From Patescibacteria group bacterium (GTDB lineage: Bacteria > Patescibacteriota > Microgenomatia > UBA10105 > UBA927): a stretch of 64,000 bases of DNA. The stretch covers positions 177,039 to 241,038 of the forward strand of contig DATKGN010000004.1 of NCBI GenBank assembly GCA_035510735.1, read 5' to 3'. Shown in pieces: positions 24,263 to 55,426 of the stretch (its first letter is position 1; the number at the start of each line of letters is the position of its first letter). The position numbers were made by a program, and so were the translations under genes. Below the pieces are notes generated by a model. The model was not told the DNA's origin, searched no databases, and saw only the letters and a list, made by a program, of their open reading frames with translations.

Positions 24263-24266
24263 TATT

Positions 24267-28032: not shown

Positions 28033-28034
28033 TT

Positions 28035-28709: not shown

Positions 28710-28763
28710 AAAATAGACTTACTACTTGACAAGGGGTGGTATCTCCTAGTACGGTTAAAGTAT

Positions 28764-39785: not shown

Positions 39786-40898
39786 TTATTTCCCCCTGAC
39801 ACGAAGAGAGTCTGCAGTGAATGTTATTCCTAAGGGATTTATGCGGACACGTTTCGATCCTGATGAGACAACTCCCCCATGCCAGACTTTTAACCCGTGG
39901 CGTTTCGCACATTTTTTCACTGTTGGAATATCGTCTGCTGGAAGAAACAGTGCAAACCCCGCACCCATGTTAAACGTTTCATACATTTCTTTATCGCTCA
40001 GTCTGCTTACGGATTGTATATAGGAAAATTCAGGTTGGGGAGCGGGTACACTATCAATAGTGTATGTAAAGTCACGGTCAGCACGCATGAGTTTTCGCCA
40101 CCCGTGTCCGGTGATATTTACCATGTAATGGATGTCTACGTCATGGCCGAAAAGATCTGACACAAATTTTGCATATATATGCGTGGGCCGAAGAAGCGCT
40201 TCACCAAACAATGATCCGTCAGATAAACGAGTAGCATATCCTTTCTGTACGAGCCCAGCGACCGATCTTGCAAGTGTCAATCCGTTTGCGTGAATGCCGC
40301 TACTTTCCACGAGAACAATTGCATCTCCGGAGGTTAATTTGTCGCCCAACGTAAGATGGTTCTTTGGTTGTATGATGCCAACGGCAGAACCCGCCAGATC
40401 AATTGTGTCCGGTCGAAGGATATCCTTGAGCGTCGGCGTCTCACCGCCGCCCCAGATCGCGCCGCTATCACGGCACGCCGCGGCCCAGCCTGTTATCAAG
40501 TCGACAGCACGTTTTTTATCTGAAAACCAATCTGAACCGCCGACGGCAAAATATGCCGTTACTACTTGAGGCGAGGCACCCACGACGATTAAATCGTTTA
40601 CAATCATTGCAACGGTGTCCTTCGCGATTGCTCCATAATAGGATTTGCCCGTGACAGATCTCATCTCATCGGCGACGAGATTTTTTGTTCCTAAGCCCTC
40701 CATCACAAATGCACGGTAGCAGTTTTTTTCTTCCCATACATACGCGGACTCCCCCCGGCTTTTTGAAACTTCATGAACCGATGTATGCCGACCACCGAGT
40801 GACGTACGTTTTCCTTCTCTTTGGGAAAGACGTTTTACTTCGTCTAATATTCGGTAACTGACACCTGCGTCCGCATACGATATGTGTTTCTTCCTCAT
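39786..40898 (-). CDS. purM: phosphoribosylformylglycinamidine cyclo-ligase (AIR synthetase), divergent
   Basis: SYADAGV, GLGTKNLVA, VAMIVNDLIVVGASP, GGGET, SSGIHANG and MYETFNMGAGF align to PurM blocks. Confidence 0.7.
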   Translation of the reverse strand: MRKKHISYADAGVSYRILDEVKRLSQREGKRTSLGGRHTSVHEVSKSRGESAYVWEEKNCYRAFVMEGLGTKNLVADEMRSVTGKSYYGAIAKDTVAMIVNDLIVVGASPQVVTAYFAVGGSDWFSDKKRAVDLITGWAAACRDSGAIWGGGETPTLKDILRPDTIDLAGSAVGIIQPKNHLTLGDKLTSGDAIVLVESSGIHANGLTLARSVAGLVQKGYATRLSDGSLFGEALLRPTHIYAKFVSDLFGHDVDIHYMVNITGHGWRKLMRADRDFTYTIDSVPAPQPEFSYIQSVSRLSDKEMYETFNMGAGFALFLPADDIPTVKKCAKRHGLKVWHGGVVSSGSKRVRINPLGITFTADSLRVRGK

Positions 40899-41827
40899 AT
40901 CTCGAGGGATTTGCGGATAGCGTTTTCAACAGGGTATGTATATTTTTTAAAATGCCTGCCGGTAATTTTTTGATAGACTGCTATATAGCGTTTTGAAAGC
41001 GCGTTCATGAGTGTAGCGGGCATCGTCGGTGGTTTTCCATCTCCACGGTAGCCGCGCTTGGCATACCAGAGCCGTAGAAATTCTTTATCGAAATTTTCCG
41101 GTTCCAATCCTTTTTTAAACCGCTGTTCATACGTTTTGGCTATCCAAAACCGTGAAGAATCTGGCGTGTGGATTTCATCAATAAGCATCAGTTTTCCTTT
41201 ATACAACCCGAATTCGTATTTTGTATCCACAAGAATAAGACCATGCTTTTTGCAGATTCTGCTTCCGCGATCGAATAATGCGAGCGCTGCTTTTTCCATT
41301 TGTTCATACAGTTTTTTTGGAACTATTTTTCTTTTGATTATCTCTTCGCGCGTGAGGCGCTCATCATGTCCGCCTTTGCCCCCTCCGTGAGTGGTCGGCG
41401 TGATAACGGGTTTTGGGAGTTTTTGATTTTTTTTCAGTCCGTCAGGAAAATGTATACCGTAAATGAACCGTTCACCCTGCTCGTATGAATACCAAATGGA
41501 AGTTTTCGTGACGCCGGAGATATATCCACGCACAATCATTTCAATAGGAATAGGTTTTGTATCGTGGGCGATAAGAACATTTGGATGGGGGACTGATATT
41601 TTATGATTCGGGACGATATCGCTTGTCGTGTCAAACCAAAACGCGGAAAGTTGATTTAATACGGCGCCTTTGTATGGTATGTGTCCCAAAATAACATCAA
41701 ACGCGGATTGCCGGTCCGTCGTCACGATGATGCGTTTGCCGTCTTTAATATAAAAATCCCTGACTTTTCCATGTAGTTTTTTTCCGTATTTAGGAAGATT
41801 AATAGTTTTAAGCATGTTAGTTGCCAT
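40895..41827 (-). CDS. purC: phosphoribosylaminoimidazole-succinocarboxamide synthase (long form)
   Basis: KVRDFY...TDRQSAFD and ILVDTKYEFG motifs of SAICAR synthetase. Confidence 0.85.
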   Translation of the reverse strand: MATNMLKTINLPKYGKKLHGKVRDFYIKDGKRIIVTTDRQSAFDVILGHIPYKGAVLNQLSAFWFDTTSDIVPNHKISVPHPNVLIAHDTKPIPIEMIVRGYISGVTKTSIWYSYEQGERFIYGIHFPDGLKKNQKLPKPVITPTTHGGGKGGHDERLTREEIIKRKIVPKKLYEQMEKAALALFDRGSRICKKHGLILVDTKYEFGLYKGKLMLIDEIHTPDSSRFWIAKTYEQRFKKGLEPENFDKEFLRLWYAKRGYRGDGKPPTMPATLMNALSKRYIAVYQKITGRHFKKYTYPVENAIRKSLEI

Positions 41828-42329
41828 ATTTTTTCCAACCCGCGCGGGTTAACGCTATATTTTTCTCGCGGACTCTTTTCTCTAAATCGAGTTTATATAA
41901 CTGTAATCGTTTAGCGAGATGTTCATCTTTGATTGCGAGGATTTGGACAGCGAGTAGCGCAGCGTTTTTCGCGGCATTGATTCCAACGGTTGCAACGGGT
42001 ACTCCAGGCGGCATTTGGACGGTTGAATAGAGCGAGTCTGCTCCACCCAGCGATTTACCGAGTATCGGAATTCCGATAACCGGACGCGCTGTATGGGCGG
42101 CAATGACGCCGGCCAGATGCGCAGCCCCGCCTGCTGCGGCGATAAAGACGAGTACTCCTCCCATGTCGGATTTTTTTACGAACGAGACCGTATCTTCAGG
42201 GCTCCGGTGAGCAGAAAGGACCCGAACGTCAAACGGAATGTTGAATTGCTCTAATATGATAAGTGCATCCCTAACGACTGGGAGATCGGAATCGCTTCCC
42301 ATGAGTACGGCGACAGTGGGTTTAGGCAT
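41817..42329 (-). CDS. purE: 5-(carboxyamino)imidazole ribonucleotide mutase / AIR carboxylase
   Basis: VAVLMGSDSD, SAHRSP and AAGGAAHL motifs. Confidence 0.85.
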   Translation of the reverse strand: MPKPTVAVLMGSDSDLPVVRDALIILEQFNIPFDVRVLSAHRSPEDTVSFVKKSDMGGVLVFIAAAGGAAHLAGVIAAHTARPVIGIPILGKSLGGADSLYSTVQMPPGVPVATVGINAAKNAALLAVQILAIKDEHLAKRLQLYKLDLEKRVREKNIALTRAGWKKYGN

Positions 42330-43731
42330 ATTTTTTTATTGTTTTTGTAATTTCATCGACAAGGGATAGCGCACGCTCCGGTGCGTCACCGATGTGACTG
42401 GCTACATCAAGACACCCACAAATTTCATCATTCTTCAGGTATTGTTTGATAATCTTATTTTGATTGAGGAGATCTGTCATTGGATTTGGCTTTCCTTCCT
42501 GAACTGCTTCCCATGACTTCATGGAAATAGTGCGCAACAGTTCATGCATCTCCTGGCGGTTAGCGCCGCGTTTAACGAGTATAATGAGGATTGATTCGGT
42601 GGCAGCAAACGGGGCAAATTGATTGACATTATATTCAATACGCCGGGTGTTAATGACGAGACCGGAAACAATTTTTTCTGCGGTTATGAGTATTTCATCC
42701 GATGCTAAAAACGCTTCCGACATGACAATCCGTTTGTTTGCAGAATCGTCAAGTGTCCGTTCTAAATAATTTACCGTCGCGTTTCCGAGGGCGACCTCGG
42801 GTAACGATGTAACATACCGTGCGAGAGAACAAATTTTCTCAGAGTTAATCGGATTTCTCTTGAACGGCATCGCGGAAGACCCCACCTGTTTTTTCCCGAA
42901 CGGTTCGCTCCATTCTCCGACCCCGGCAGATTGCAATATACGGACATCGCCAGCGAATTTTGCGAGGGAAGAGGCGATGCTTGCAAGCGCTGAAATTACC
43001 AAAAAATCGTATTTACGAGGGGCAACTTGTGAAGTAATCAGTGATGCCGGTATGCCCAGCGTTTTCATAACGCTCACATCAAGCTCTTTAGGTGACATAC
43101 GACTGCCCGTTAGAGCTGCTTTATAGCTTGCAGAGGAGCCGACTGCTCCTTTCATACCTTTACCTTTATAGATGGAGCGCACAAAGTTGAGAAATGCAAG
43201 GTCGGTTAACAAATCCTGTGCATAAAAAGCCAGTCGGTATCCGACTGTTGTCGGTTCCGCCGGTTGCAGGTGAGTGTACCCCATGCAGGGAGTGGTTGCG
43301 TATGTGCGTATATGAGTAGCAAACAATTTTAAGAGTGTAATGAGACGGGTTTGAATTTCTTCCATCGCTTCATGGATACGAATGGCGTCCGCATTATCGA
43401 CAATATCCATACTGGTAGCACCGAGATGTATTTTTCCGCCACCAACTGGCGATTTCCCAGCAAATTCACGAATTGCGGCGACAACATCATGATTTGTTTC
43501 CTTTTCAATGGAAAGTATTTCAGCGATATCGATATCATCCTCATGACGCTTCAAGTCCTCTAGTTCGTGTTTGGAAACCAGGCCGGCTTCATGCTGCGCC
43601 TCTGCCAGTGCGACCCAAATTTTGCGCCAAATACGATATTTATTTTTTTCACTGAAAATTTCCCTCATGCGGTCGCTACCGTAACGCCAGGAAAAAGGGG
43701 ATACGTAATTGGAAAAATCTGTGCTATTCAT
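42322..43731 (-). CDS. purB: adenylosuccinate lyase
   Basis: Fumarate-lyase signature GSSAMPFKRNP. About 470 aa long form. Confidence 0.85.
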   Translation of the reverse strand: MNSTDFSNYVSPFSWRYGSDRMREIFSEKNKYRIWRKIWVALAEAQHEAGLVSKHELEDLKRHEDDIDIAEILSIEKETNHDVVAAIREFAGKSPVGGGKIHLGATSMDIVDNADAIRIHEAMEEIQTRLITLLKLFATHIRTYATTPCMGYTHLQPAEPTTVGYRLAFYAQDLLTDLAFLNFVRSIYKGKGMKGAVGSSASYKAALTGSRMSPKELDVSVMKTLGIPASLITSQVAPRKYDFLVISALASIASSLAKFAGDVRILQSAGVGEWSEPFGKKQVGSSAMPFKRNPINSEKICSLARYVTSLPEVALGNATVNYLERTLDDSANKRIVMSEAFLASDEILITAEKIVSGLVINTRRIEYNVNQFAPFAATESILIILVKRGANRQEMHELLRTISMKSWEAVQEGKPNPMTDLLNQNKIIKQYLKNDEICGCLDVASHIGDAPERALSLVDEITKTIKKYA

Positions 43732-43735
43732 ATAG

Positions 43736-44833
43736 TTATGTAACGATTTTTTTCAACTGTTTAGAATGAATTGCTTCTTTAATTTCCAGTGCAACGCGCC
43801 TGCCGGCTGACATGCTGGCTCCCCAAAGATACCCTGAATACGGACCTGATGCAATACCCGGAGATCCTGGCATACGGGGCGATACATCGATAACAACAAT
43901 ATCTTTTTTGGGCGGGCCGGAGGTGATGATCGATTGGAGTGCAAACGGACCGATGACGCCGGGTGGATAGAGAATCCTTGTGGCTTTTACAAACGCTTCG
44001 CCTAAAGCGAATGCTTTTTCAAGCATTGATTCCAGCACCGTCACTGCAATATGACCTGATTCTTCAAACGTGAGTGGTGAAGACGCAAGTACAGTATCCT
44101 GATACATAGCTGGCACCCGCAAAAATCCATCAAGATTCGTCTGTCTTCTCGTGTCCGTTCCCATAAGTTCAAGGCGGTTATTAATCTGAGAATAAAAGAA
44201 ATTAAAATTGACTGGGGTTCCAAGGATAAATTCTTCAATAACCTGGGAGTCAAGTGCTGCTTTTGAGATTTTTTTGATCCGTATCAATTCTTTACTTTTT
44301 TTCGTATAGTCCTTAAAACTCGAAACGAGAAAGAACGCTCGTTCATATGTGCGCTCCCGTTCCGCAACTTTCACAATACATAGTCTGTCAATTTCATCCG
44401 GTGAATTGAAATGCCTCGGGTACCGGATCTTGGCTGCATGTAGCACATCATATTGGTTCGGTTTAGTTTTTCGTTCCTCTATTTTTAAGAGAAATTTATT
44501 TCCGAATATCGGTATATGTATATCGTTTTCGATCGCATGATAATCAAAATTGAGATACGCTTCCAGAGATCGGTGGGGGATGAGAATCGCGTTACGTTGT
44601 TGTAATTGTTTTTGAATATTCTTTGTTAACATATCATGAAAATCGTTTACCACGATGCACGTATCGATACATCCGAGACTATTGTGACTACGGTAATAAT
44701 CCGTGTATGTTTTCTCCCGGCCCTTTTGGGCGATCACAAGGGTTGCAAATCCCTCATCTTTTGCACCGCGGCAGACGTCAAGCGCACTGTGGCTTCCGAG
44801 TACCGCGATGGTAACCTTGTTCGTTTTTTCCAT
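43736..44833 (-). CDS. archaeal-type 5-formaminoimidazole-4-carboxamide ribonucleotide synthetase-like (PurP paralog, ATP-grasp)
   Basis: N-terminus VTIAVLGSHSALDV, IPHRSLEAY, PIFGN, and C-terminal GPFALQS ... RVALEIKEA blocks parallel PurP. Confidence 0.65.
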   Translation of the reverse strand: MEKTNKVTIAVLGSHSALDVCRGAKDEGFATLVIAQKGREKTYTDYYRSHNSLGCIDTCIVVNDFHDMLTKNIQKQLQQRNAILIPHRSLEAYLNFDYHAIENDIHIPIFGNKFLLKIEERKTKPNQYDVLHAAKIRYPRHFNSPDEIDRLCIVKVAERERTYERAFFLVSSFKDYTKKSKELIRIKKISKAALDSQVIEEFILGTPVNFNFFYSQINNRLELMGTDTRRQTNLDGFLRVPAMYQDTVLASSPLTFEESGHIAVTVLESMLEKAFALGEAFVKATRILYPPGVIGPFALQSIITSGPPKKDIVVIDVSPRMPGSPGIASGPYSGYLWGASMSAGRRVALEIKEAIHSKQLKKIVT

Positions 44834-44838
44834 TGTTT

Positions 44839-45846
44839 TTAATCGATTATCATGTCTAGTTTGTTTTTTGTGATCGCGAATTTAATTTCCCTGGCAATTC
44901 TTCTCCCGGTACTCATGGGCTCATTATATGTTAACCAGGAGTATGGGGAGCCCTCAATAAACAGGTTGGTGCCGGCAACAATTCTGCATGATATTTCCAT
45001 GGCGTAAAACCGCTGATCAGGAGTGATAACCGTTTCCAAACAAAATGGGCCGATGAGACCCCGGCGGTCAATAAGTTTTTTTGATGTGGCGACTATACGT
45101 TCACCCATCGCGTATGCTTCTGGTAAAAGAGACTCGCGAAGAACGAGCGAACTGTTGCCGACAACCACGTAACTGGGATCGATGTGCATGGAATGTTGAT
45201 ATTGTGAAGGAATTCTTCCCAGCCCGTCGACATTGGTCTCATACCTCCGGTCGATACTCATAAGCTCAACCACATTGGTTAATGGTGAATAAAAATAGTG
45301 CAGATAACATGTTACACCCACGATGTATTGTTGAATAACATAACGGGAGGATTTTATTGAGCGGATTTTTTCCGTAAATTCCTTTTTATTTGCAGCGAGG
45401 AAATATCCCGATCCTCCTGCTGCGCCGAACGTTTTGACAATAACAGGGAACTTTATAGTTTTTTCCGTAAATTCCTGTGGCATCAATATGCAGGCGTCTA
45501 CAATCCACTGTCGTTGCAGCCTGCGGTCTTCTTCCCAATCGAGAACCTTTTTATTTCCGAAATAGGGAATTGTTATTCTTTTATTTCCCTCTTTCCCAAG
45601 ATACGCGACGAAGGATCCGTGGGGGATGAGGATGCAAGTTTCTTTTTTCAATTGTTTTTCAACTTTTGGAAAATCGGAGTAGCGCGTTATCCCGATAACC
45701 TTGTCGATAAACGGAAACCTTCGGTAAAAACTTGCTTTATCGTGAAGTGCGATAAGCATCGTGCGGAATCCCTCATCTTTGGCGCCTTTCATAATCTGAA
45801 GAGCACTGTGGCTTCCGAGCGTGGCGATGGTGGTATTTATTTTCAT
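44839..45846 (-). CDS. purP: archaeal-type FAICAR synthetase (formate- and ATP-dependent AICAR formyltransferase)
   Basis: Blocks [66 protein letters not shown] and RIAREIK match characterised archaeal PurP. The ORF extends to 46095, which would overlap purQ; start at MKINTT preferred. Confidence 0.75.
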
Positions 45847-45847
45847 A

Positions 45848-46651
45848 TTAGTCTTTGAAATATGATACAGCATTTTTAAATAGTTGAAGACCGGGTCCCG
45901 CTGTTGGTACCGGTAAACCTCTCCGAGTATACACCTCTTTGAGATAGGTCCAGTTGGGAAGTTGCGTAAAGAATAGTGCGCGTTCAGGGTGGGGCATAAG
46001 GCCGAGTATTTTTCCGGTCCGATCGGTGATTCCCGCAATATCATCCATGGTGCCGGTCGGGTTAGCGGGGAGATCCTGATATATGCATGTATCACCCCTC
46101 ACATATCGAAGCGCGATCATTCCGTTTTTCCTCATTTGCTCCAACGTCGTCTGTTTGGTGTACAAGCGTCCCTCTCCGTGCCCGATAGGCAAAGAAAACG
46201 TAGTTATCCCCCGAAGCCAGGGTGATGAGCTAAAATTTTTAAGATCTGTCCAGCGATCTATTAACCGTGAGGACGAATTTTGAAGAAGGGCGATGTCCTT
46301 CGTTCCGATTTTTTCACTGAGTCCTGACAAGAGACCCGTATTGACCAAAATCTGGAATCCGTTACAAATTGCAATGACGAGTTTGTCACCTGCGGTAAAC
46401 TGCAAGAGCGCTTCCCATAAATGATTTTTTAACTTATTTGCGTACGCATTACCGGCGCCCGTATCGTCGCCGTATGAGAAGCCTCCTGGAATTACGAGTA
46501 TCTGATAGCGCATTAGTGTACTGGGCCGTTCAATGCAATCGTTGATATGGACAATGTCCGCATAGCTGCCCGCCATGCGGAACCCGAACTGCGTTTCCTC
46601 TTCACAGTTCAATCCGTATCCTGAAAATATAAGCGCTTTTGGTTTTTTCAT
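45848..46651 (-). CDS. purQ: phosphoribosylformylglycinamidine synthase glutaminase subunit
   Basis: Class I GATase with catalytic ICNGFQ and His/Glu. ALIFSGYG N-terminus. Confidence 0.85.
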   Translation of the reverse strand: MKKPKALIFSGYGLNCEEETQFGFRMAGSYADIVHINDCIERPSTLMRYQILVIPGGFSYGDDTGAGNAYANKLKNHLWEALLQFTAGDKLVIAICNGFQILVNTGLLSGLSEKIGTKDIALLQNSSSRLIDRWTDLKNFSSSPWLRGITTFSLPIGHGEGRLYTKQTTLEQMRKNGMIALRYVRGDTCIYQDLPANPTGTMDDIAGITDRTGKILGLMPHPERALFFTQLPNWTYLKEVYTRRGLPVPTAGPGLQLFKNAVSYFKD

Positions 46652-46685
46652 AATTAATATATTATCGTGTTAACATATGAATATA

Positions 46686-49589
46686 CTAATAATCCCGAAA
46701 CGTGCGCTGATATGCCTCTTGCATCGTTCTGAGTGAGCATCGAATAGTCACCTTATTAGCGTTACGTATAACAAAGTATTGTCCGTCAGTCACGCTACCA
46801 ATGAGGCTTAGCACATTCCCGTGCATAATCGACTCAAACTCCTTTTTGTTTTGTGGCGCGACAGTTACAACAATCCTTCCCTGGTTTTCATTCCATAGTA
46901 TGTTTTGCGGAACTTTTGCCGTTCCGGGAACTGCGGATAGGTCGATATCCAATCCCAACATTCCGCCCAATGCGGTTTTGGCAAGTGCGATACCTAATCC
47001 TCCTCGGTACACGCTTATTGCCGAAGCGATTGCATTGTTGCTTGTCATGTTATAAAAAGCACGGTAGAGCGCTGCATTTTTTTTGCCATTCACGGGCGCA
47101 TATGCATCCTCGTGTGTTTCTCCTAAAATATAGATAAGGTCTCCCGGTAATTTAACATCGAGCGAAATACATTTGGTGACATCGGGAATTACGCCGATCG
47201 CCGAGATAAGAAGGGTTGGTGGGATGGAGATCATAACGGGTTTTCCTTCGTCATCAAAGCCTTTAAAATCATTAAACATACTGTCTTTGCCTGATATAAA
47301 CGGCGTGCCGTACACTACGGCATAATCGTAGCAGGCCTGGGCCGCACGTTTGAGCTGCCCCAACCGGACAGGGTCATTTGCGCTACACCAGCAGAAATTA
47401 TCGAGTAGCGCAATATGGTCGACGTCTCCCCCTACCACAACTGCATTTCGTATTGCTGTATCAATTGAACAGGCTGCCATGTAATAGGCGTCATAATCGC
47501 TGTAGCGTGGATATAAACCCTGTGACAGCACAACTCCTTTTTGCGAAGAGAGAACCGGGCGGGAAACGGTTGCGTCGGCATTGATGCGCCCGCGGCCCTG
47601 CAACGGTTTTAATACGGAAAATCCCTGAACCTGATGATCATACTGCTGTGATATAAATGAAAAGCCTGCAATGTTCGGATCTGACAGTTTTGAAAGAAGC
47701 GCTTCTGTTTGGGAATCAAAAAGTTTTGCGTCAACGCCCTTAAGTGTTTTGGGCGGAGCAACTGTTGTAAGCCTGCGTGGTGGGAGACCGTCATGGAGAA
47801 ATTCCATGTCGAGATCCATAACAACCTCTTTATAATAGGTAACCACACACTTGCCTGATTTGGTAAACTCACCGATAACTGTGGCTTCGACGCCCCTTCG
47901 TTTCATGAGACGCGAAAACGCCGGCCACTTATTTTTTGGAACGGCGAGCGTCATGCGTTCCTGCGACTCGGAAATCCACAATTGCCATGGTGCAAGACCA
48001 GGATATTTTACCGGAATTTTATCGAGAGTGACAATGCAGCCGCCCGATTCTTTTGCCATTTCAGCAACGGAACAGGATAAGCCGCCCGCGCCGTTGTCGG
48101 TGATACTATGAAACAATCCAATGTCGCGGGCTTCTTTGACGATCGCGTCGCTTAACTTTTTTTGTGTGATGGGGTCTCCGATCTGAACTGCAGTAGCGGG
48201 GCTGCCGGTGCTCAGGGCCTCAGATGAAAATGTTGCCCCGTGGATGCCGTCAAGCCCAACACGGCCGCCGACCATCACAATGAGGTCGTCGGGTTGAGCA
48301 TGTTTTTCATACATTTTCTTACCTTTTATTTTTCGTGGAAGCAGACCTACGGTTCCTGCAAAAACAAGCGGTTTGCCGCGGTATCTGTCGTCAAAAAATA
48401 TAAATCCCTGCGGGGTCGGAATTCCGGAACAGTTGCCTCCTGCGTTGACCCCTGCTACGACGCCGTCAAAGATGCGCCGCGCTGATAACATCGGTTGTGT
48501 CCGTTCCGTATCGCGATAGAGGATGGAGGTATTTTTTGGCGGCGCCAGGCAAAATCCGTATGTATTAATAATCGGTTTTGCCCCGAGTCCGAATCCGATT
48601 GCGTCGCGATTCACGCCGACGATGCCGGTAATTGCACCGCCAAATGGGTCGAGAGCTGAGGGACTGTTGTGCGTTTCCACTTTATGGGAAATCATAAAGG
48701 TGTCGTCAAACGTGATTGCTCCGCTGTTGTCGGTAAATACAGAAACGCAGATATCCTTTTTCCTTTTTTGTTTTCGAATAATGTCAGTTGCTCTCTTAAT
48801 ATATGTGCGAAACAACCCCTTGGGCACATCATCAATATGGTCGGCAAATATCGTGTGTTTACAGTGTTCGCTCCATGTCTGTGCTATGGACTCAAGCTCT
48901 ATATCCGTTGGGTGCCGTCCGATTTTTCTAAAATATTTTTGTATGGCCTTCATGTAAGTGAGATCAAGAGCGAGAGGGCCACGATGAGTCCCGTCATCAT
49001 TTATAATTCCCTTCTTACCGATGTTCACGAGCTCTTCGTCGGAAACGTCTAGTGACACATCATTTACCCGTTGGGTTTTTGTAAGATGTACTTTCGGGAT
49101 TTGGTACCCGGTACGGTGTCCTTTATGAAATTCTCTGGAGCTTCGCACATATGCGCTTTGAATAAGCGGATTATAGAGACTTGCGGCTACCATTTTTATG
49201 CGTTGATCGGATATGGCACCATCTACAAAAAGTATTTGTGATGTATATACACTTGGTGCATCGAAAAAATCTTTATGCAATGTATCTGCAATCATTTCTT
49301 TCGTGGTATTTCCTATATTATCCGTTACTCCCGGTAAATATCCAATTTCAATCGCCCACGTAAATTTTTTTAGCGCCAGTGGTTTATCTACTGATGCTTT
49401 TTGAGTTAACGGGTGAGTAAGAAGTGGGATAATTCGGGTGACATCTTTTGATGATAAATCGGAGTCGACCGTATAGACATCAACGACATATGTTTTTGTC
49501 ACATTAAATCCGTCCTCGCGCAATCGCTTACATAATGCAATTGCACGAGGATCCGGAACTGTTGATGCTACCTCAATTCTTATTGCCAT
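46686..49589 (-). CDS. purL: PurS-PurL fusion: phosphoribosylformylglycinamidine synthase II with N-terminal PurS-like domain
   Basis: About 80-aa PurS-like N-domain, then the PurL AIRS/AIRS_C duplicated domains. 967 aa. Confidence 0.8.
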   Translation of the reverse strand: MAIRIEVASTVPDPRAIALCKRLREDGFNVTKTYVVDVYTVDSDLSSKDVTRIIPLLTHPLTQKASVDKPLALKKFTWAIEIGYLPGVTDNIGNTTKEMIADTLHKDFFDAPSVYTSQILFVDGAISDQRIKMVAASLYNPLIQSAYVRSSREFHKGHRTGYQIPKVHLTKTQRVNDVSLDVSDEELVNIGKKGIINDDGTHRGPLALDLTYMKAIQKYFRKIGRHPTDIELESIAQTWSEHCKHTIFADHIDDVPKGLFRTYIKRATDIIRKQKRKKDICVSVFTDNSGAITFDDTFMISHKVETHNSPSALDPFGGAITGIVGVNRDAIGFGLGAKPIINTYGFCLAPPKNTSILYRDTERTQPMLSARRIFDGVVAGVNAGGNCSGIPTPQGFIFFDDRYRGKPLVFAGTVGLLPRKIKGKKMYEKHAQPDDLIVMVGGRVGLDGIHGATFSSEALSTGSPATAVQIGDPITQKKLSDAIVKEARDIGLFHSITDNGAGGLSCSVAEMAKESGGCIVTLDKIPVKYPGLAPWQLWISESQERMTLAVPKNKWPAFSRLMKRRGVEATVIGEFTKSGKCVVTYYKEVVMDLDMEFLHDGLPPRRLTTVAPPKTLKGVDAKLFDSQTEALLSKLSDPNIAGFSFISQQYDHQVQGFSVLKPLQGRGRINADATVSRPVLSSQKGVVLSQGLYPRYSDYDAYYMAACSIDTAIRNAVVVGGDVDHIALLDNFCWCSANDPVRLGQLKRAAQACYDYAVVYGTPFISGKDSMFNDFKGFDDEGKPVMISIPPTLLISAIGVIPDVTKCISLDVKLPGDLIYILGETHEDAYAPVNGKKNAALYRAFYNMTSNNAIASAISVYRGGLGIALAKTALGGMLGLDIDLSAVPGTAKVPQNILWNENQGRIVVTVAPQNKKEFESIMHGNVLSLIGSVTDGQYFVIRNANKVTIRCSLRTMQEAYQRTFRDY

Positions 49590-49591
49590 AG

Positions 49592-51766
49592 TTATAATCC
49601 GATATCGGTACGGTATTGCATACCGTTAAAACTAATTTGTTTTCCGATAAGCGCATATACCTGTGCACGGGCTTTTTCTATTGAACTCTCCCACGCAGTG
49701 ATTCCGAGAACTCTTCCGCCGGTTGTAATTGTCGTCGATTCACTCCGCGAGGTGCCGGCATGAAACACAGTCACTGTATTGTTATGCGGTTTCGCTAGCC
49801 CCACTATTTGTATGTTTTTTAAATAGTGCCCCGGATAGCCCGGTGCCGCTAAAACAACACATACGCAGGTTTGGTTGCTGAAAGATACGAGCCGCGGGGA
49901 AAGAGAGCCGTTGAGACAGGCTTCAACGATAGATAATAGATCGCTCTTAAGAAGCGGTAATTGGACCTCTGTTTCGGGGTCTCCAAATCTGCAGTTAAAT
50001 TCCAAAATATAGGGTTTTCCCTCCGCGATCATCAATCCTGCATAGAGAACACCTTGATATGGTCGACCCTCCTTTTTCATGCATTGAACTGCATATTGTA
50101 ATAACTGATATATCTTCTTTAGTTGCTGTGGAGTCGCGTTATCGGATGGCGCCATTGATCCCATGCTTCCGGTATTGGGACCAACATTACCATCTCCGAG
50201 TCGCTTGTAGTCTGAGGTTGCAATAATCGGAGCGACCCGTGTGCCGTCACTAAAGACCATAACTGACACTTCTTTTCCGACAAGTTTTTCCTGAATCACT
50301 ATTCGATCTCCCGCTCGTCCCAACGTTTTATTAATCATAAGCGATCGTATTGCATCACTTGCAGTCTTCATGCTGTCACAGACGAAAACTCCTTTACCCT
50401 GACAGAGCCCGTCCGCTTTAATGACGACATTACCGTTATATTGTCCGCTGTATGCAATTGCAGATTTCGGATCATTGAAAGTCTTTGAGGCTGGACGGGG
50501 GAGGTTGTGGCGTTTTAAAAATTCAGAGGCCCAAACTTTACTGGTTTCTAATTGTGCTGCTTCGCGGGTTGGTCCGAAGATTTGTAGGCCCTCTTGGGTA
50601 AATTTGTTGACGATTCCCAAAGACAGGGGAGCTTCGGGTCCGACGACCGTAACATCAATGCCTGCCGTCTTTGCAAATTGCAGGAGCCCATCAACATTAT
50701 CGGCGGCAATCGGTAAATTTTGGCCTAACGTCGAAGTGCCACCATTGCCCGGGGCAAAGTATAGTTGCCCAATATTTTTTGATTTCGCGAGCTTCCATCC
50801 GATAGCGTGTTCACGGCCGCCTGACCCTACAATCAATATTGTCTTTTTGTCTACGATTTTCATTATTTTTCTTTCAAATTCCTTTTTCAAAGGTAAACCC
50901 ACCCGCGCGCCGGACTTACGTACGCAAAATCCTGCGAGCGTATTGCCTGCATCTGCGCACATTCTTAAATTTTTTTGACGGAGGACCCCCCATAAATAAC
51001 CGGCAATGAACGCATCACCTGCGCCGGTTGTATCTACCGCAGAAACCGAAACCGTAGGAATATGTGTGATGCAATAGATTATGGAAACAAAACATCCGTT
51101 GGATCCGTCCGTGATAACGACAGTGGAAACGCCAAGATCATGCAGTAGTTTTGTTCCTGTTAGATTTTCTTTTCCCGTTAGCGTTTGCAATTCTTCTTTG
51201 GTTAGAAAAACGATTGCGCATCGGCGAAGAATCGGTGTGAGGCGGGTCATCCCCAGTCTGCAGTAGATAATCCCTGGGGCAAAAGAGATAATTATAGTTT
51301 TATGTAATTTAGAAATGAAAGATTCCTGCACACTCAGCTGTTTGGTATTAACGAATGAACTTACGTGCATAATTTTAGTGTGGATTGTTGATGGCGCCGG
51401 CATATCGCGTGAAGTGAGATCGCTATTTATTCCCGGAAAAATATTCAGAAGCCGATGCCCCTTTTTATCTACAAGTCCCAAAACAACACCGCTGTTACCA
51501 GATTTTTTCCGTATTAACGTTGTGTCTACATGGTCTGCCTTAAAAGCCGAGATATGTAATTTCCCCTCCGCGTCATCGCCGATTGTACCGATGAACGCGG
51601 CTTTTTGACCGAGCCGACCCAGTGCGGCTATTGTATTTGCGGCTGACCCGCCGGGTGCGCGTGTTTCGTATTCCACGAGCGCCTCGCCTTCACTTGTAAA
51701 TTGGGGGACTGTGCCCAAGCGATCAACATTCAGCGCACCGAAACCGATAATGTCGTAGGTTTTCAT
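49592..51766 (-). CDS. purD: fusion of PfkB-family (ribokinase-like) sugar/nucleoside kinase with phosphoribosylamine-glycine ligase (PurD)
   Basis: Residues 1-300 carry the GG motif (PGGSAANTIAALG) and the ribokinase anion-hole motif VDTTGAGDAFIAGY. Residues 302-724 are PurD (ILIVGSGGREHA...). No stop codon between the two halves. Confidence 0.8.
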   Translation of the reverse strand: MKTYDIIGFGALNVDRLGTVPQFTSEGEALVEYETRAPGGSAANTIAALGRLGQKAAFIGTIGDDAEGKLHISAFKADHVDTTLIRKKSGNSGVVLGLVDKKGHRLLNIFPGINSDLTSRDMPAPSTIHTKIMHVSSFVNTKQLSVQESFISKLHKTIIISFAPGIIYCRLGMTRLTPILRRCAIVFLTKEELQTLTGKENLTGTKLLHDLGVSTVVITDGSNGCFVSIIYCITHIPTVSVSAVDTTGAGDAFIAGYLWGVLRQKNLRMCADAGNTLAGFCVRKSGARVGLPLKKEFERKIMKIVDKKTILIVGSGGREHAIGWKLAKSKNIGQLYFAPGNGGTSTLGQNLPIAADNVDGLLQFAKTAGIDVTVVGPEAPLSLGIVNKFTQEGLQIFGPTREAAQLETSKVWASEFLKRHNLPRPASKTFNDPKSAIAYSGQYNGNVVIKADGLCQGKGVFVCDSMKTASDAIRSLMINKTLGRAGDRIVIQEKLVGKEVSVMVFSDGTRVAPIIATSDYKRLGDGNVGPNTGSMGSMAPSDNATPQQLKKIYQLLQYAVQCMKKEGRPYQGVLYAGLMIAEGKPYILEFNCRFGDPETEVQLPLLKSDLLSIVEACLNGSLSPRLVSFSNQTCVCVVLAAPGYPGHYLKNIQIVGLAKPHNNTVTVFHAGTSRSESTTITTGGRVLGITAWESSIEKARAQVYALIGKQISFNGMQYRTDIGL

Positions 51767-52677
51767 AGCATTTCCCTCCGGGGCGATCGGGTCTCAATCG
51801 AATGAATTCCCGTTCCCTCATTTCCAGGCCAGATTGCATGATCCCCGACGATTTCTTCCGTTAAATCCAGTCCGTTCTCCAATGCTATACTATTTGTTCC
51901 AATAATTTTCCCTTCTACAACAGAGAGCCTGCCTTCTGCAAACGCTCCTATCGTACGAATGACGAGTTCCGGTTCAAATGCTGCTTCCGCCTGACGGAGT
52001 TCTGTGAATAAGGGGTGAGTCGGTTTATCTTTCAGTGACGTTTGTTCTTGGATAAGCTTTTCCAATTCATCGTGATCAGTTGGCAGCGTGTCCCACAGAC
52101 GGCTTAGATTTATACCATTAATAATTCCCTTGGCAGGAAGACGGAAATAGGCAATTGGGGTACCCGCGTCAAGCGTCGGGATTGCAAGATGCATCATGCC
52201 ACCGATTTCTTTTCTTTTTTCCCGGACCCAAGTCCCTATAACGTTCCAGTACACACCCTCTCTTCCGCCCATTGATAATGGTAAATCGGGGTGGAGATTC
52301 AAGGATGGCAGGGTATTACACCATTCTGATCCTTTTATTACCATGTCTCCAGCCATGATATTGAGATCGGATTTTTCCCGTATTTGTTTCAAGATTGCCG
52401 TATCGTATTCATTTTTATCAGCATCCGTTGGGTTTTTCTTTATTCTCCCGTGCTGTTTAGCAGAATACATAATAAGAGGCACGTCAGAATAGTTATTCAT
52501 TAATCGCGTAAGCAACAGATCGGTCATTCTTCTCGCATCGTCTCCCACCTCTCGGGTAGAAATAACAGCTGAAACGTGCACACCGGGAAGTTCACCTAGG
52601 GTAGCGGCGTCTATGATACCTGTTACTAATTTGTATGCTTCAAAATCGATGAGTGTTGAACTTATGCTTATGTTCAT
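51763..52677 (-). CDS. formyltransferase-domain protein (PurN-like GAR transformylase candidate) with C-terminal extension
   Basis: NIMAGDMVIKGSEW...SLNLHPDLP (N-x-H) and HLAIPTLDAGTPIA (catalytic Asp region) align to the PurN/Fmt formyltransferase core. About 100 extra C-terminal residues. Confidence 0.5.
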   Translation of the reverse strand: MNISISSTLIDFEAYKLVTGIIDAATLGELPGVHVSAVISTREVGDDARRMTDLLLTRLMNNYSDVPLIMYSAKQHGRIKKNPTDADKNEYDTAILKQIREKSDLNIMAGDMVIKGSEWCNTLPSLNLHPDLPLSMGGREGVYWNVIGTWVREKRKEIGGMMHLAIPTLDAGTPIAYFRLPAKGIINGINLSRLWDTLPTDHDELEKLIQEQTSLKDKPTHPLFTELRQAEAAFEPELVIRTIGAFAEGRLSVVEGKIIGTNSIALENGLDLTEEIVGDHAIWPGNEGTGIHSIETRSPRREML

Positions 52678-52683
52678 ATGGTT

Positions 52684-53733
52684 TTATCCGAGTACTGCAG
52701 CATCAGCGCGAATTATTTTTCTCATCTTCGTATGACGTGCTACTAAAGAATTAAACAGAGACTTGTTTTGTGGATTCACGCGAACAAAGTGAGCGTCAGA
52801 ATGTTTGCTTTGTTTTTGAATAAACGATGAGACTGCATCATTGCCTCCCTTGATCCATGCGTTCAGGAGGGGAATGAGAAATTCCATATTCGGTGTTGAA
52901 ACTGCCACTTTTGCTGCCTCTAACGCATAGTGGTTGCCGTTGATTGCTATTGATAATCCACCGGCGCGGTTGATTGCCTGAAAAAGTTCGACATCAGTTA
53001 TGCTGTCTCCAATGTAGATCACATCTTTGAGTGTTACTTTCAACTGTCGAGCAAAACGTTCTGCGGCTTCAACTTTGCGTTTTCCGCCGATGACATGAAT
53101 CGCTGAGAGTATTTCCAAGCCTGCATCAGGAAGATCTTTCCAAAAAAATCGGTCTAGTCGTTTTCGTAGGAAAATACACGACTCATTATTCATAAATAGA
53201 TCTATTGTGGAAGAATTTGTTCCCTCTGAGTTCAACATCCGCAAACAGGAGGGCGTCATTGATTTAATATCTTTTTCAGTTTCGGTAATTACGTTCATTA
53301 TTTTTTTTGTCGAAAATTGACGGTGGAGTTTATCAAGCTGCAAGTCAGTTGATGCGATATCCATGTGGGGAATATTCAGGTGCGCTCCAACCGTTTCCCA
53401 TAAATATGTATACGCAGTAGATATAATCCGGATGTTCCACTCATCATGGCGAAGTTTCCTAACGCATTGCACTACTCCGGGCGTCAACCTTGCATGTTGC
53501 GCGATCTTTTTCATTTTAGCGTCGGTTACACCATGCGAAATAAAGAGAGGGATGATAAGCGCAAGTGTGTCACCTGCCTGGTACTCATCAGGACCATGAA
53601 CGGAAAGATAATCATCATATGCACTCAAAAGTAAAAACAAATTTTTGTCAATGGTCGAGGTGACATCAAGGGCAAAATCATTTGTAACGATAGGACCCTC
53701 GCCGTCAGTAAACAAAACCTTGCGGGTGTTCAT
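52684..53733 (-). CDS. HAD-superfamily-like hypothetical protein with atypical motif I, embedded in pur operon
   Basis: LFTDGEGPIV (D-x-E in place of D-x-D), IISTAY (motif II), K in GGKRK, YIGDSITD (motif IV). Confidence 0.4.
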   Translation of the reverse strand: MNTRKVLFTDGEGPIVTNDFALDVTSTIDKNLFLLLSAYDDYLSVHGPDEYQAGDTLALIIPLFISHGVTDAKMKKIAQHARLTPGVVQCVRKLRHDEWNIRIISTAYTYLWETVGAHLNIPHMDIASTDLQLDKLHRQFSTKKIMNVITETEKDIKSMTPSCLRMLNSEGTNSSTIDLFMNNESCIFLRKRLDRFFWKDLPDAGLEILSAIHVIGGKRKVEAAERFARQLKVTLKDVIYIGDSITDVELFQAINRAGGLSIAINGNHYALEAAKVAVSTPNMEFLIPLLNAWIKGGNDAVSSFIQKQSKHSDAHFVRVNPQNKSLFNSLVARHTKMRKIIRADAAVLG

Positions 53734-55273
53734 AGATGTTTTTGGGCAGTATGTCTTTTATTATTTTGATCCTTTTCGATTTTTGAACGACCGTGTTTCC
53801 ATTTATATCCACCGGCGGCTGATGTCCCGCCATGCAACCCATGCAGAATCCGCGTGTCTTCGGATCTCCCGTAATGGCTTCCCGCAAACCTTCAGCACTT
53901 AAGTATGCCAGTGATTTCGCGCCGAGCTCGATCCTGATTCTCTCAACATCTCCGTTTAAACGGGCAGCGATCAGTTCTTTTGAAGACCGTGTATTTACTC
54001 CCAAGTGGCACGCTTTATCGATTGGAGGACTGACGATGCGCAGATGAACATCAATGACGCCATAATAGTGTTTGAGTAAATAAATAAGACCCCGCGTTAT
54101 ATTTCCACGGACTATCGAGTCATCGACCAGAACGACGCGGCGCCCGTGTAATGCTTGGGCGTCAAAACAAAAATGCTCCAGCACCTTTTGATAGATACTA
54201 TCAATATCGGCAGTCATGAATGTTCGTTGCTCTGTGAGACTGACCGATTTATCCGTAATCGCCTGAAAGTAGGGAAGATCAAGCGCCCGCGCGTAGGTCA
54301 TGCCGCCTTCGATACCTGTTCCCGGGACTCCTATAACCATATTCACTTCACGTAATGAAATAGGCGCTTCACGGGCGAGGATTTTGCCACTGCGTCTCCT
54401 CACATCGTCAATAGTAGGCGACCGTTTCACTGCCCGAATGCTGCTTCGCGGCATGTGCGCTTTGCCCGCACCGTGTTGCAAATAGATATTTTCAAAAATA
54501 CAGAGAGCCCGTTGCCGTTCATGCTGTTTTGCTAAAATGATAAGACCTTTGTCGGAAATTTTAGCAATCGTGCCGGGCATTAATTCAAAATAATCGGTAA
54601 CTCCCATGGCATCCAACGCACTTGTTTCTGAAGCCGCTACCCAAACAAACTGACGTGTTATACTATCCCACAGGTGTCCGTATACAAACGGACGTAACCC
54701 CCAGGAGTCCCTCGCCACATACAGTGCGTTATCCGTGCTTACCACCAAGCTCCATGCGCCGCGTTTGGTCGATAGGACGCGGACGATTCGCTCATCCCAA
54801 TTTTGGCCGTCTGCATCACGGAGTTCTTGAGTGAATAGTAATGTGTCGCTTTGTCCGGATTGTTTCACGTTGGCGCTCTGAGAAAACTGGCCGTTATGAA
54901 CAACCATAAATGTTTCACCTGCCTGTCCAAGTTTTGTGACAATAGGTTGGACGTTATTTGTTGTAAATTCGCCGCTTGTCCCATAGCGTACCTGATAAAC
55001 CCAACTTTTTGCGCGAATTGTCTTAAGATCTTTCGCGATTGACGGGCGAAATACTTCCCGGACCATTCCTTTGTCTTTATGCTCAAAGAGCTGGCCCTTT
55101 TCACTCTTGGCGCAAAAGCCGGCGCCGTCATATCCACGAGTTTGCAATATTGACAGTCCTGCTAACCCAGTTTTGAAGAATTCAAAATCTTTTGGTGCAA
55201 ACGCGGCGACGATGCCGCAGTGGTCCTGAAGGGGTAAACGTTCAGCAACAAAAAAAGGATACGACGATTTCAT
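53705..55273 (-). CDS. purF: amidophosphoribosyltransferase
   Basis: N-terminal CGIVA nucleophile after a short propeptide, Ntn-GATase domain, PRT motif VVLVDDSIVRGNIT. ORF opens at 55324; Met at 55273 has an AGGGA RBS. Confidence 0.85.
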   Translation of the reverse strand: MKSSYPFFVAERLPLQDHCGIVAAFAPKDFEFFKTGLAGLSILQTRGYDGAGFCAKSEKGQLFEHKDKGMVREVFRPSIAKDLKTIRAKSWVYQVRYGTSGEFTTNNVQPIVTKLGQAGETFMVVHNGQFSQSANVKQSGQSDTLLFTQELRDADGQNWDERIVRVLSTKRGAWSLVVSTDNALYVARDSWGLRPFVYGHLWDSITRQFVWVAASETSALDAMGVTDYFELMPGTIAKISDKGLIILAKQHERQRALCIFENIYLQHGAGKAHMPRSSIRAVKRSPTIDDVRRRSGKILAREAPISLREVNMVIGVPGTGIEGGMTYARALDLPYFQAITDKSVSLTEQRTFMTADIDSIYQKVLEHFCFDAQALHGRRVVLVDDSIVRGNITRGLIYLLKHYYGVIDVHLRIVSPPIDKACHLGVNTRSSKELIAARLNGDVERIRIELGAKSLAYLSAEGLREAITGDPKTRGFCMGCMAGHQPPVDINGNTVVQKSKRIKIIKDILPKNIYEHPQGFVY

Positions 55274-55362
55274 CGCAATCGTATCCCTTATGTACAGAGT
55301 AAAAAAGAACGGGTGGGTTGTCAAGAGCTCAATATTGTTTAAGCTTGTGCTTTTTTGGCCAA

Positions 55363-55391
55363 TTGACAGACTTCTTTCTGACAGTTTATAG
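55363..55391 (+). promoter_or_regulatory. sigma70-like promoter for purA
   Basis: TTGACA-17 nt-TTATAG, about 35 nt upstream of the purA start. Overlaps a TTGGCCAA palindrome. Confidence 0.35.
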
Positions 55392-55426
55392 TAAATACTA
55401 TTGTTCTGCCCTTTAGGAACTTTATT

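Follow-up and report, generated by a model that had tools for sequence, protein, structure and literature searches.

Genome context and gene content

The DNA analyzed here is a stretch of 64,000 nucleotides (the window in what follows) of contig DATKGN010000004.1 from the Patescibacteria group bacterium assembly GCA_035510735.1, whose minus strand carries, at positions 39786-55273, a compact block of twelve genes for de novo purine synthesis. Read from its purF end, the block comprises purF, a gene for a HAD-like protein, a gene for a divergent PurN-like formyltransferase, a fused pfkB::purD gene, purL, purQ, two purP genes, purB, purE, purC and purM (Table 1). Judged from its sequence, the block is very probably a real, intact operon for the synthesis of inosine monophosphate (IMP) in a Gottesmanbacteria-like bacterium belonging to the candidate phyla radiation (CPR). 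The HAD gene and the PfkB domain, which an earlier note on this DNA had treated as incidental, turned out to be its most interesting part and are predicted to be a copy of a conserved formyltransferase-HAD-PfkB cassette in which the order has changed and some parts are fused.

All twelve coding sequences (CDS) start with ATG and contain no internal stop codons, according to the listing of open reading frames (ORFs) and a check of each CDS; the count of twelve consecutive genes and the gene order given in the earlier note were both right. The operon spans 15,488 nt and is essentially 100% coding, with junctions of -29, +6, -4, +2, +34, +1, +5, +4, -8, -11 and -4 nt from purF to purM. The compaction with overlaps thus stands as first described, but the largest spacer is 34 nt and not 30 nt, and the claimed near pathway order holds for the first five genes only, the steps of the pathway following one another as 1, x, 3, x-2, 4, 4, 9, 9, 8, 6, 7, 5 (x, no pathway step). 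The start of purP-a was set at the ATG at 45846, one base past the purQ stop. At the other end, the purM stop abuts a convergent aldehyde dehydrogenase gene (38301-39785, plus strand).

Gene identities were assigned by Pfam and NCBIfam profile searches of the ORF translations, which bore out the proposed reading of a de novo purine operon. The genes for steps 1 to 9 were recognized by family models (PurF, PurD, PurN-like, PurL, PurQ, PurM, PurE, PurC, PurB and PurP), and the PurD domain of the fusion was matched by all three of GARS_N, GARS_A and GARS_C (Pfam); the HAD-like gene and the PfkB domain lie outside the pathway steps. It weighs against these assignments that purF, purL, purQ, purM, both purP genes and the PurN-like gene score under the curated NCBIfam cutoffs, so that the function of these genes rests on homology and context. 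The gene strings of three related contigs described below agree with the operon reading. Domain scans found no purH, purK or purT in the block, in line with the earlier note. Its statement that purA, guaB and guaA follow immediately is right in part: purA lies upstream of purF and is divergent from it, and the genes for purine nucleoside phosphorylase, GuaB, GuaA and a phosphoribosyltransferase are found beyond purA on the minus strand.

A single transcript, starting in the 153-nt divergent region between purF and purA, probably covers the whole operon. No riboswitch or leader RNA, no tRNA and no other Rfam family was found in the whole window at gathering thresholds, an E-value-based Rfam scan of 55200-55500, upstream of purF, gave a chance match only, and neither a purine riboswitch nor a PurR box was detected. 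A scan for promoters and terminators returned site counts equal to the expectation from shuffled sequence; it lends the single transcript no support, since it says nothing on this point.

Table 1. Genes and domains of the purine operon and of the adjoining region. Positions refer to the window.
Gene or domain	Product and pathway step	Position	Strand	Remarks
purF	glutamine phosphoribosyl pyrophosphate (PRPP) amidotransferase, step 1	53705..55273	-	522 aa; TIGR01134 205 bits full length, cutoff 350
HAD gene	EhaR-type HAD-IB protein	52684..53733	-	349 aa; overlaps purF stop by 29 nt
PurN-like gene	divergent long PurN-like formyltransferase, candidate glycinamide ribonucleotide (GAR) transformylase, step 3	51763..52677	-	304 aa; TIGR00639 30.6 bits, cutoff 150
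pfkB::purD	fusion gene	49592..51766	-	724 aa
PfkB domain	ribokinase-like, residues 1-305 of fusion	50849..51766	-	PF00294 at 1.6e-45
PurD domain	GAR synthetase, step 2, residues ~306-724 of fusion	49592..50848	-	TIGR00877 469 bits, cutoff 288
purL	formylglycinamidine ribonucleotide (FGAM) synthetase II, step 4	46686..49589	-	967 aa; TIGR01736 452 bits over residues 214-966
purQ	FGAM synthetase glutaminase subunit, step 4	45848..46651	-	PF13507 at 3e-68; NF002252 189 bits
purP-a	homologue of ATP-grasp formate-dependent aminoimidazole carboxamide ribonucleotide (AICAR) formyl ligase, step 9	44839..45846	-	335 aa; DUF1246 + DUF1297
purP-b	more divergent PurP paralogue	43736..44833	-	365 aa; DUF1246 + DUF1297
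purB	adenylosuccinate/succinyl-AICAR (SAICAR) lyase, step 8	42322..43731	-	TIGR00928 388 bits, cutoff 326
purE	class I, step 6b	41817..42329	-	TIGR01162 195.5 bits, cutoff 149.6
purC	SAICAR synthetase, step 7	40895..41827	-	NF009251 404 bits, cutoff 371
purM	aminoimidazole ribonucleotide (AIR) synthetase, step 5, last gene	39786..40898	-	TIGR00878 198 bits, cutoff 236; AIRS + AIRS_C
purA		55427-56971	+	divergent, upstream of purF
202-aa ORF		57017-57625	+	no Pfam, NCBIfam or PDB match
Nucleoside phosphorylase gene	purine nucleoside phosphorylase	57606-58460	-	
guaB		58462-59925	-	
guaA		59916-61448	-	
Phosphoribosyltransferase gene	phosphoribosyltransferase	61513-62136	-	

Properties of the predicted enzymes

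The PurF protein has an 18-residue propeptide ahead of the catalytic cysteine (..LQDH/CGIVA) and a C-terminal FCMGC motif (CxxC), and looks functional and glutamine-dependent. The PurN-like protein has no Pfam match. Its catalytic residues N127, H129 and D170 are invariant in alignments A2 and A3 and correspond to N106, H108 and D144 of Escherichia coli PurN. The N-terminal phosphate loop G-x-G-S-N is not conserved and reads ISSTLIDF, and the protein carries inserts and a C-terminal extension. Its homologues are PF00551 proteins of about 275 aa (a 'long PurN' subfamily). Among the structures retrieved by Foldseek with an AlphaFold2 model (pLDDT 92.8), the top 16 PDB matches were all PurN/GART, with target-normalized TM-scores of 0.66-0.79, and GAR transformylases ranked ahead of PurU, ArnA and sugar formyltransferases.

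In the entry purS-purL of the earlier note, the PurS part is weakly supported. PurL has an N-terminal extension of about 200 aa, of which residues 1-63 gave a weak match (E 1e-4; 22 bits, cutoff 122) to NF005019, a PurS model; the Pfam PurS family did not match the extension, a faint PF02700 match was seen in the PurL orthologue of locus L008, and no separate purS ORF is present in the block. The extension is probably a PurS-like module. A BLASTP comparison with Bacillus subtilis PurS gave no match. PurE passes the TIGR01162 cutoff and contains SAHR...GGAAHLAG; we take SAHR...GGAAHL(P/A)G to be the signature of class I PurE, the N5-carboxyaminoimidazole ribonucleotide (N5-CAIR) mutase. The PurK partner of a class I enzyme was not found in the window. 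N5-CAIR can form non-enzymatically at high CO2, a possibility that has been raised for archaea (Brown et al., PMC3261824).

Host lineage and conservation of the operon

The nearest named relatives of the window proteins belong to Candidatus Gottesmanbacteria, which agrees with the CPR-like organism first suggested. The rest of the window also fits a CPR genome: besides genes for a sortase, two PBP1A proteins and a type IV pilus, there are few for biosynthesis. A Gottesmanbacteria contig (L004) has the string purF, PurN-like, PurD, PurL, PurQ, PurP, PurP, PurB, PurE, PurC, with a pyrimidine operon upstream of it, and two related CPR contigs (L005 and L006) share the order purF, HAD, PurN-like, PfkB::PurD. 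In L005 the fusion is followed by a gene for a 438-aa protein and then by PurL, PurQ, PurP and PurP. Since the gene string recurs in all three contigs, the arrangement is not one of chance, and since the genes are kept in relatives they are conserved and not pseudogenes, a point that the earlier note had set down for checking and on which the twelve uninterrupted CDS agree.

Two further features of these contigs may be recorded. The 438-aa ORF of L005 (6923-8239), which lies between PfkB::PurD and PurL, is without a Pfam match and is not present in the window; it could be a further component of the pathway. The pyrimidine operon of L004 is interrupted, between the pyrD/LOG-like genes and pyrF, by a gene for a HicA toxin with a small ORF upstream of it (4514-4741).

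A complete IMP pathway had been called unexpected for a CPR-like organism, a view that is overstated as to the surprise and not borne out as to completeness. In one survey, 32% of 399 metagenome-assembled genomes (MAGs) from the CPR scored complete for synthesis from PRPP to IMP (PMC11608272), and the purine pathway is therefore not unusual in the CPR, to which the closest PurP-b homologues described below also belong where named. As to completeness, no IMP cyclohydrolase was identified, and the class I PurE is without PurK. These findings bear on how far episymbiont-like CPR bacteria depend on their hosts for nucleotides.

The PurP pair and the last step

Both PurP copies contain DUF1246 and DUF1297 and are similar over their full length to the characterized PurP of Methanocaldococcus jannaschii. 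The closest match of PurP-a is Pyrococcus furiosus PF1517, a PurP of type II (PDB 2R84, E 1.8e-93), followed by M. jannaschii PurP (PDB 2R7K, 1.9e-88); PurP-b matches 2R7K at 3e-61 and 2R84 at 2e-45. In a pairwise comparison the two copies are 35% identical, PurP-b carrying several insertions. Their best NCBIfam PurP scores, 370 bits (PurP-a) and 264 bits (PurP-b), lie under the equivalog cutoffs of 556-603. By these comparisons PurP-a appears closest to the PurP II type, and PurP-b may be of the PurP III type.

The homologues of PurP-b number more than 7,000. The best 120 of them (at least 60% identity) are from the CPR where named; the names include Gottesman-, Shapiro-, Woese-, Davies- and Curtissbacteria, all of the Microgenomates group. 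The pair is thus a trait of the lineage and neither a one-off mosaic nor a single transfer. The description of the enzyme set as a bacterial/archaeal mosaic holds only for the archaeal affinity of some of its members, which is evident in the PurP pair and in the match of the HAD protein to an archaeal homologue. Among 1,403 complete genomes surveyed in 2019, purP was confined to the Archaea (PMC6486802), a finding that the bacterial PurP pair contradicts. A literature search that combined purP with CPR terms returned no mention of purP among the ranked results. The operon shows the archaeal-type PurP pair to be a standard part of purine synthesis in Microgenomates-type CPR, a large bacterial group.

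According to the same survey, PurP III is present in every genome with PurP II, and 37 genomes have the PurP II/III pair without a known IMP cyclohydrolase (PMC6486802); the same gap had been described in archaea before (Brown et al. 2011, PMC3261824). The gap recurs here. The search covered most window ORFs of at least 150 aa and the genes called in the 10 kb upstream of the window. Among them no MGS, AICARFT_IMPCHas or IMP_cyclohyd domain was detected, nor were domains of PurH, PurO, PurK, PurT, Prs, FolD or Fhs; these 10 kb contained no pur genes, and downstream the available contig copies ended. The absence of purH, purO and purK is therefore a local and not a genome-wide one.

It is a guess that the PurP pair alone might cover both AICAR formylation and ring closure. 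Should it do so, the missing IMP cyclohydrolase of the Crenarchaeota and Thermococcales would be solved. The reading of the operon is weakened by the work of Zhang et al. (2008, as cited in PMC6486802), in which PurP II and III of P. furiosus were without formyl-AICAR (FAICAR) synthetase activity in vitro, and by the extent of the search, which took in 64 kb of the 382-kb contig (~17%, and less of the genome), so that purH, purO or purK may lie elsewhere. The competing explanation is that an ordinary purH (or purO/purJ) and purK are encoded elsewhere in the genome, the PurP pair being redundant or otherwise used and the operon unremarkable but for its order. It agrees with the limited share of the genome inspected, with ten archaeal genomes that carry PurH besides PurP II/III (PMC6486802) and with the purK gene in the operon of the CPR-like lineage of locus L092. 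However, the 74 kb searched around the operon contain none of these genes, the operons of L004 and L005 have the PurP-PurP string as well and are without purH, and two redundant systems are rarely kept in small genomes; on balance this explanation is somewhat unlikely. With genomes of about 1 Mb and the pathway in one operon, such CPR bacteria narrow the space in which the IMP cyclohydrolase that is missing from PurP II/III organisms has to be sought.

Two other candidates for the last step were rejected. The 202-aa ORF beyond purA, considered as a PurO-like IMP cyclohydrolase or as a HAD paralogue, has no similarity to the operon HAD protein and no counterpart at the other loci, besides its lack of database matches (Table 1). 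It overlaps the 3' end of the nucleoside phosphorylase gene by 20 nt and contains a HAD-like stretch, IAIDLEGTII, with an Asp-x-Glu-Gly pattern as in the EhaR-type protein. The HAD protein itself, and equally its pair with PfkB, is ruled out as an essential missing IMP cyclohydrolase, L004 having the same operon without the HAD gene and the PfkB domain.

The HAD protein and the PfkB domain

All four HAD motifs are present in the HAD protein. Motif I reads D-G-E-G-P, with the residue at Asp+2 replaced by Glu, and motifs II, III and IV read IST, GGKRK and GDSITD. The protein matches Archaeoglobus fulgidus AF1437 (PDB 1Y8A) in sequence and fold, is a homologue of it, and carries a large extra cap. 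No hydrogenase genes were found in the window, where the context of the HAD gene is one of pur genes. In an alignment to E. coli RbsK (PDB 1GQT), the PfkB domain keeps the N-x-D, GG and GAGD motifs (the last with the catalytic Asp); Lys43 of RbsK is replaced by Ser, and NXXE reads T-K-E-E. The domain scores under every equivalog cutoff, with 135 bits for ribokinase (TIGR02152, cutoff 300) and about 103 bits for two ribose-1-phosphate kinase models. Literature searches on EhaR, on AF1437 and on the eha operon together with ribokinase yielded nothing on function. The HAD gene and the PfkB domain are absent together from L004, by which they behave as one accessory unit.

The formyltransferase-HAD-PfkB cassette in other genomes

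With the HAD alignment as query, 80 loci were retrieved from the GTDB species genomes, 78 of them with a called HAD gene. The PurN gene is located directly upstream of the HAD gene in 46 of these 78 loci and the PfkB gene directly downstream in 38 of the 78. By lineage, PurN is adjacent to HAD and PfkB is near HAD in 38/41 and 30/41 loci, respectively, of Chloroflexota, in 3/3 and 3/3 of Thermoplasmata, in 3/3 and 2/3 of Bacillota, in 2/2 and 2/2 of Thermosaccharophagus and in 1/1 and 1/1 of Actinomycetota; at loci of Altiarchaeia, Hydrothermarchaeales and Acidobacteriota, HAD and PfkB stand together without PurN.

The order of the three genes varies. PurN, HAD and PfkB stand in a row in Chloroflexota, Bacillota and Thermosaccharophagus, PurN is divergent from HAD-PfkB in Thermoplasmata, the Actinomycetota locus reads PfkB-PurN-HAD, and the CPR arrangement is HAD, PurN, PfkB::PurD. 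On Dehalococcoidia contigs the HAD gene directly follows PurN, with PfkB close by. The cassette is located inside pur operons at five loci (L008, L014, L015, L049 and L059). At L008 the order is PurN, PurD, HAD, PfkB, PurL, PurQ, PurM, and at L059 the cassette supplies the only PurN of an operon with the order PurE, PurB, PurC, PurF, PurM, PurH, PurD; a further locus (L007) reads PurL, PurQ, PurN-like, HAD.

Three kinds of gene fusion were found: PfkB::PurD (the window, P0336 and P0337), PurN::HAD (L014) and PurN::PurD (P0338). Besides the window, two cluster representatives of 1.84 billion cover the whole PfkB::PurD fusion, which is found in at least three clusters (50% identity) and, as two tandem copies, in L092. 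These fusions tie the cassette to GAR synthesis and formylation.

Several observations weigh against a cassette of such generality. At loci of ANME archaea and Methanosarcinales the HAD gene stands alone, without PurN or PfkB. As many as 41 of the 80 loci are from Chloroflexota with shared flanking synteny, so that the raw counts overstate independence. PurN::HAD was seen only once, in a MAG covered 3.3x, and L092 has PfkB::PurD without a nearby HAD gene. Because of the shared wider synteny the Chloroflexota amount to about one observation; the differing arrangements of the cassette in other lineages are independent. The cassette and the PurD and PurN fusions are concrete, cheaply testable candidates for an unrecognized reaction in a well-studied pathway.

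The loci with fusions have the following further features. In the Caldilineae MAG (L014, 5541-10632, 3.3x coverage), ORFs for PurD::PurM (782 aa) and PurN::HAD (621 aa) are followed by PfkB. In L092 (GCA_040960175.1, 10001-16010), the PfkB::PurD genes encode 733 and 731 aa, and four small ORFs, one with a helix-turn-helix domain, lie between them; the operon contains purF, PurN and, further on, PurL, PurQ, PurB and PurK, and no HAD gene.

A possible parallel in methanogens

In the annotation reported by Kaster et al. (2011, PMC3087415), ehaS of Methanothermobacter codes for a formyltransferase of the Ftr type and ehaT for a ribokinase; the two genes are co-transcribed with ehaA-R. If EhaR is a member of the HAD family of the window, ehaR-S-T would repeat the trio of the cassette with an unrelated formyltransferase in it. 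It speaks against this parallel that the link between the window family and EhaR is given by a Joint Genome Institute (JGI) product name of homologues and not by alignment. No Ftr-like neighbours of the HAD gene were found by Pfam at the loci examined of Methanosarcinales, Methanophagaceae, Hydrothermarchaeum and unclassified Methanobacteriota MAGs, and the parallel in methanogens thus rests on the literature; the neighbours at the archaeal loci examined were DtxR-like repressors, fructose-1,6-bisphosphatase, chaperonin and a YhcG nuclease.

According to Brown et al. (2011, PMC3261824), a GAR formyltransferase is missing from Archaeoglobi, Methanobacteriales and Methanopyrus. Since Methanobacteriales are among the archaea without an identified GAR formyltransferase, EhaS is a candidate for this enzyme. 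Such an exchange of PurN for Ftr would make a role of the HAD and PfkB proteins on the side of the ribose-phosphate acceptor the most likely one and would disfavour a role on the cofactor side. It is proposed tentatively, at a likelihood clearly below even, that HAD and PfkB are a widespread, unrecognized accessory pair of early purine synthesis, which is combined with a PurN-type enzyme in Chloroflexota, Bacillota, Thermoplasmata and CPR or with the Ftr-type EhaS in Methanobacteriales. If this is true, EhaR, EhaS and EhaT, described as 'hydrogenase subunits', are enzymes of purine synthesis, the GAR formyltransferase missing in Methanobacteriales since 2011 is EhaS, and a phosphotransfer step around phosphoribosylamine, GAR or formyl-GAR (FGAR) is absent from the textbook pathway. 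The GAR formyltransferase that is missing from some methanogens can likewise be sought in these small CPR genomes, where the search space is narrow.

Predicted pathway and alternative explanations

We infer the substrates of the operon enzymes as follows. Step 1 would be performed by glutamine-dependent PurF, matured from its propeptide, step 2 by the PurD domain of the fusion and step 3 by the long PurN-like formyltransferase, probably with a folate-type donor. Step 4 would fall to PurL, with its built-in PurS-like module, together with PurQ, step 5 to PurM, step 7 to PurC and step 8 to PurB. For step 6, the class I PurE would receive N5-CAIR either from an unlinked PurK or from the non-enzymatic reaction at high CO2. 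Step 9 may be carried out by the PurP pair with formate and ATP. For step 10, the IMP cyclohydrolase reaction, no recognizable gene is present, and it is a guess that the PurP pair or an unlinked gene covers it. HAD and PfkB are taken to be an accessory phosphotransfer pair tied to the PurD and PurN steps, where it would act on the side of the ribose-phosphate acceptor and not on the one-carbon (C1) cofactor.

In a more specific form, the pair might serve to provide or recycle ribose 5-phosphate, phosphoribosylamine or early intermediates that have lost their phosphate, which is possible but rather unlikely; a feeder role for ribose 5-phosphate in particular would leave the tie to formyltransferases unexplained and so counts against it.

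The strongest competitor for the role of the two proteins is nucleoside or ribose salvage, merely co-regulated with purine synthesis, in which scavenged ribose would be converted to ribose 5-phosphate for PRPP. PfkB would then be a ribokinase or ribose-1-phosphate kinase, and HAD a phosphopentomutase-like enzyme or a ribose-1,5-bisphosphate 1-phosphatase. The best NCBIfam matches of the PfkB domain, reported above, are to just such kinases, a purine nucleoside phosphorylase and a LOG-like nucleotide nucleosidase are encoded in the window, and CPR and Dehalococcoidia are known scavengers (PMC11608272). Salvage would, however, leave unexplained the adjacency to formyltransferases that persists across rearrangements, as well as the two fusions PurN::HAD and PfkB::PurD; for a stable product like ribose 5-phosphate, fusion to PurD would bring no advantage, RbsK Lys43 and the Asn of NXXE are replaced, and autotrophic methanogens have little need of a feeder. 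Salvage in general, and these enzyme activities in particular, are considered unlikely.

Another explanation is a direct handover to PurD. PfkB might make phosphoribosylamine, or phosphorylate a riboside of an early intermediate, and pass the product to PurD in a PurF-independent or backup route to GAR, with HAD at the PurN end. Phosphoribosylamine is very short-lived. It is the sole intermediate for which a fusion of its producer to PurD makes mechanistic sense, the fusion recurs in several clusters and in the tandem pair of L092, and the PfkB-family aminoimidazole riboside kinase PDB 1TYY was matched at E 1e-18. Such a route is nevertheless improbable: purF is intact in every operon seen, there is no evidence for a source of ribosylamine, PfkB is a separate protein in most lineages, and the role of HAD is left unexplained. 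It is very improbable that the EhaR-type HAD is a plain phosphoserine phosphatase that provides, from serine, glycine and C1 units for PurD and PurN, for an ordinary phosphoserine phosphatase-like HAD-IB gene is already present at 15039-15665 on the plus strand (TIGR01491 79 bits, serB 71 bits), the EhaR-type protein has Glu at Asp+2 and a large extra cap, and the PfkB partner would have no explanation.

Comparison with known systems

One of the closest known systems is the archaeal pathway with PurP II and III of Crenarchaeota and some Thermococcales (Brown et al. 2011, PMC3261824; PMC6486802). Common to both are two adjacent PurP paralogues, one near PF1517 and M. jannaschii PurP and one more divergent, the absence of purH, purO and purJ nearby, a class I-like PurE without PurK, and a PurS function apparently built into PurL. 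In contrast to that pathway, the host of the window is a CPR bacterium, GAR formylation is assigned to a PurN-type enzyme, and the genes lie in one 15.5-kb operon with HAD and PfkB as extras. With the pur operon of the B. subtilis type (purEKBCSQLFMNHD) it shares a long, tight arrangement for nearly the whole pathway, a PurF with propeptide and cluster-type cysteines, and an FGAM synthetase split into PurL and PurQ. It differs in gene order, in the absence of purK, purH and a separate purS, in the replacement of the PurH transformylase by two PurP copies, in its two extra genes and in that no purine riboswitch or PurR box was detected.

The ehaR-ehaS-ehaT genes of Methanothermobacter (PMC3087415) likewise bring together an EhaR-family HAD (by JGI name), a formyltransferase and a PfkB ribokinase-like kinase, co-transcribed there, but the formyltransferase is of the Ftr type (methanofuran/tetrahydromethanopterin) and not of the PurN type, and the genes are attached to a membrane hydrogenase operon instead of pur genes and have been interpreted as hydrogenase subunits. 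Fusions of early-step enzymes are also known from the eukaryotic trifunctional GART (PurD-PurM-PurN), and PurD::PurM and PurN::PurD were seen in this analysis as well; here, in contrast, the fusion partners include a sugar kinase (PfkB::PurD) and a HAD protein (PurN::HAD), which have no step in the textbook pathway. In its composition the operon is a genuine variant: it combines a PurP pair in a bacterium with a long, divergent PurN and with the conserved cassette in fused form, and neither PurK nor a known IMP cyclohydrolase lies nearby.

Other features of the window

A gene of the LOG/TIGR00730 family (nucleotide 5'-monophosphate phosphoribohydrolase type) is located at 7266-7874 on the plus strand; its product could free ribose 5-phosphate from nucleotides in a scavenger. 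At 8654-9523 (minus strand) a 289-aa ATP-grasp-like protein is encoded, the best NCBIfam match of which is the D-cycloserine synthetase DcsG (166 bits, cutoff 360) and which also matches the tetrahydromethanopterin:glutamate ligase MptN weakly. A 401-aa protein with an ice-binding-like domain (2497-3702, minus strand; PF11999, 3e-48) adjoins the sortase gene and is possibly a sortase-anchored surface protein. Two adjacent GH130 genes (beta-1,4-mannooligosaccharide phosphorylase family; 16792-17760 and 17774-19624, both on the minus strand) follow, the second with an N-terminal extension of about 290 aa without a match. A type IV pilus-like cluster with the T2SSE ATPase and the T2SSF platform protein, on the plus strand (21528-29237), is followed by an 827-aa ORF (24682-27165) and several small ORFs; this ORF and a 224-aa ORF (28035-28709) were scanned and matched no family. 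Finally, two class A penicillin-binding protein genes (transglycosylase and transpeptidase) are arranged in tandem on the minus strand (31810-34410 and 34484-36676), which is an unusual duplication for a small genome.

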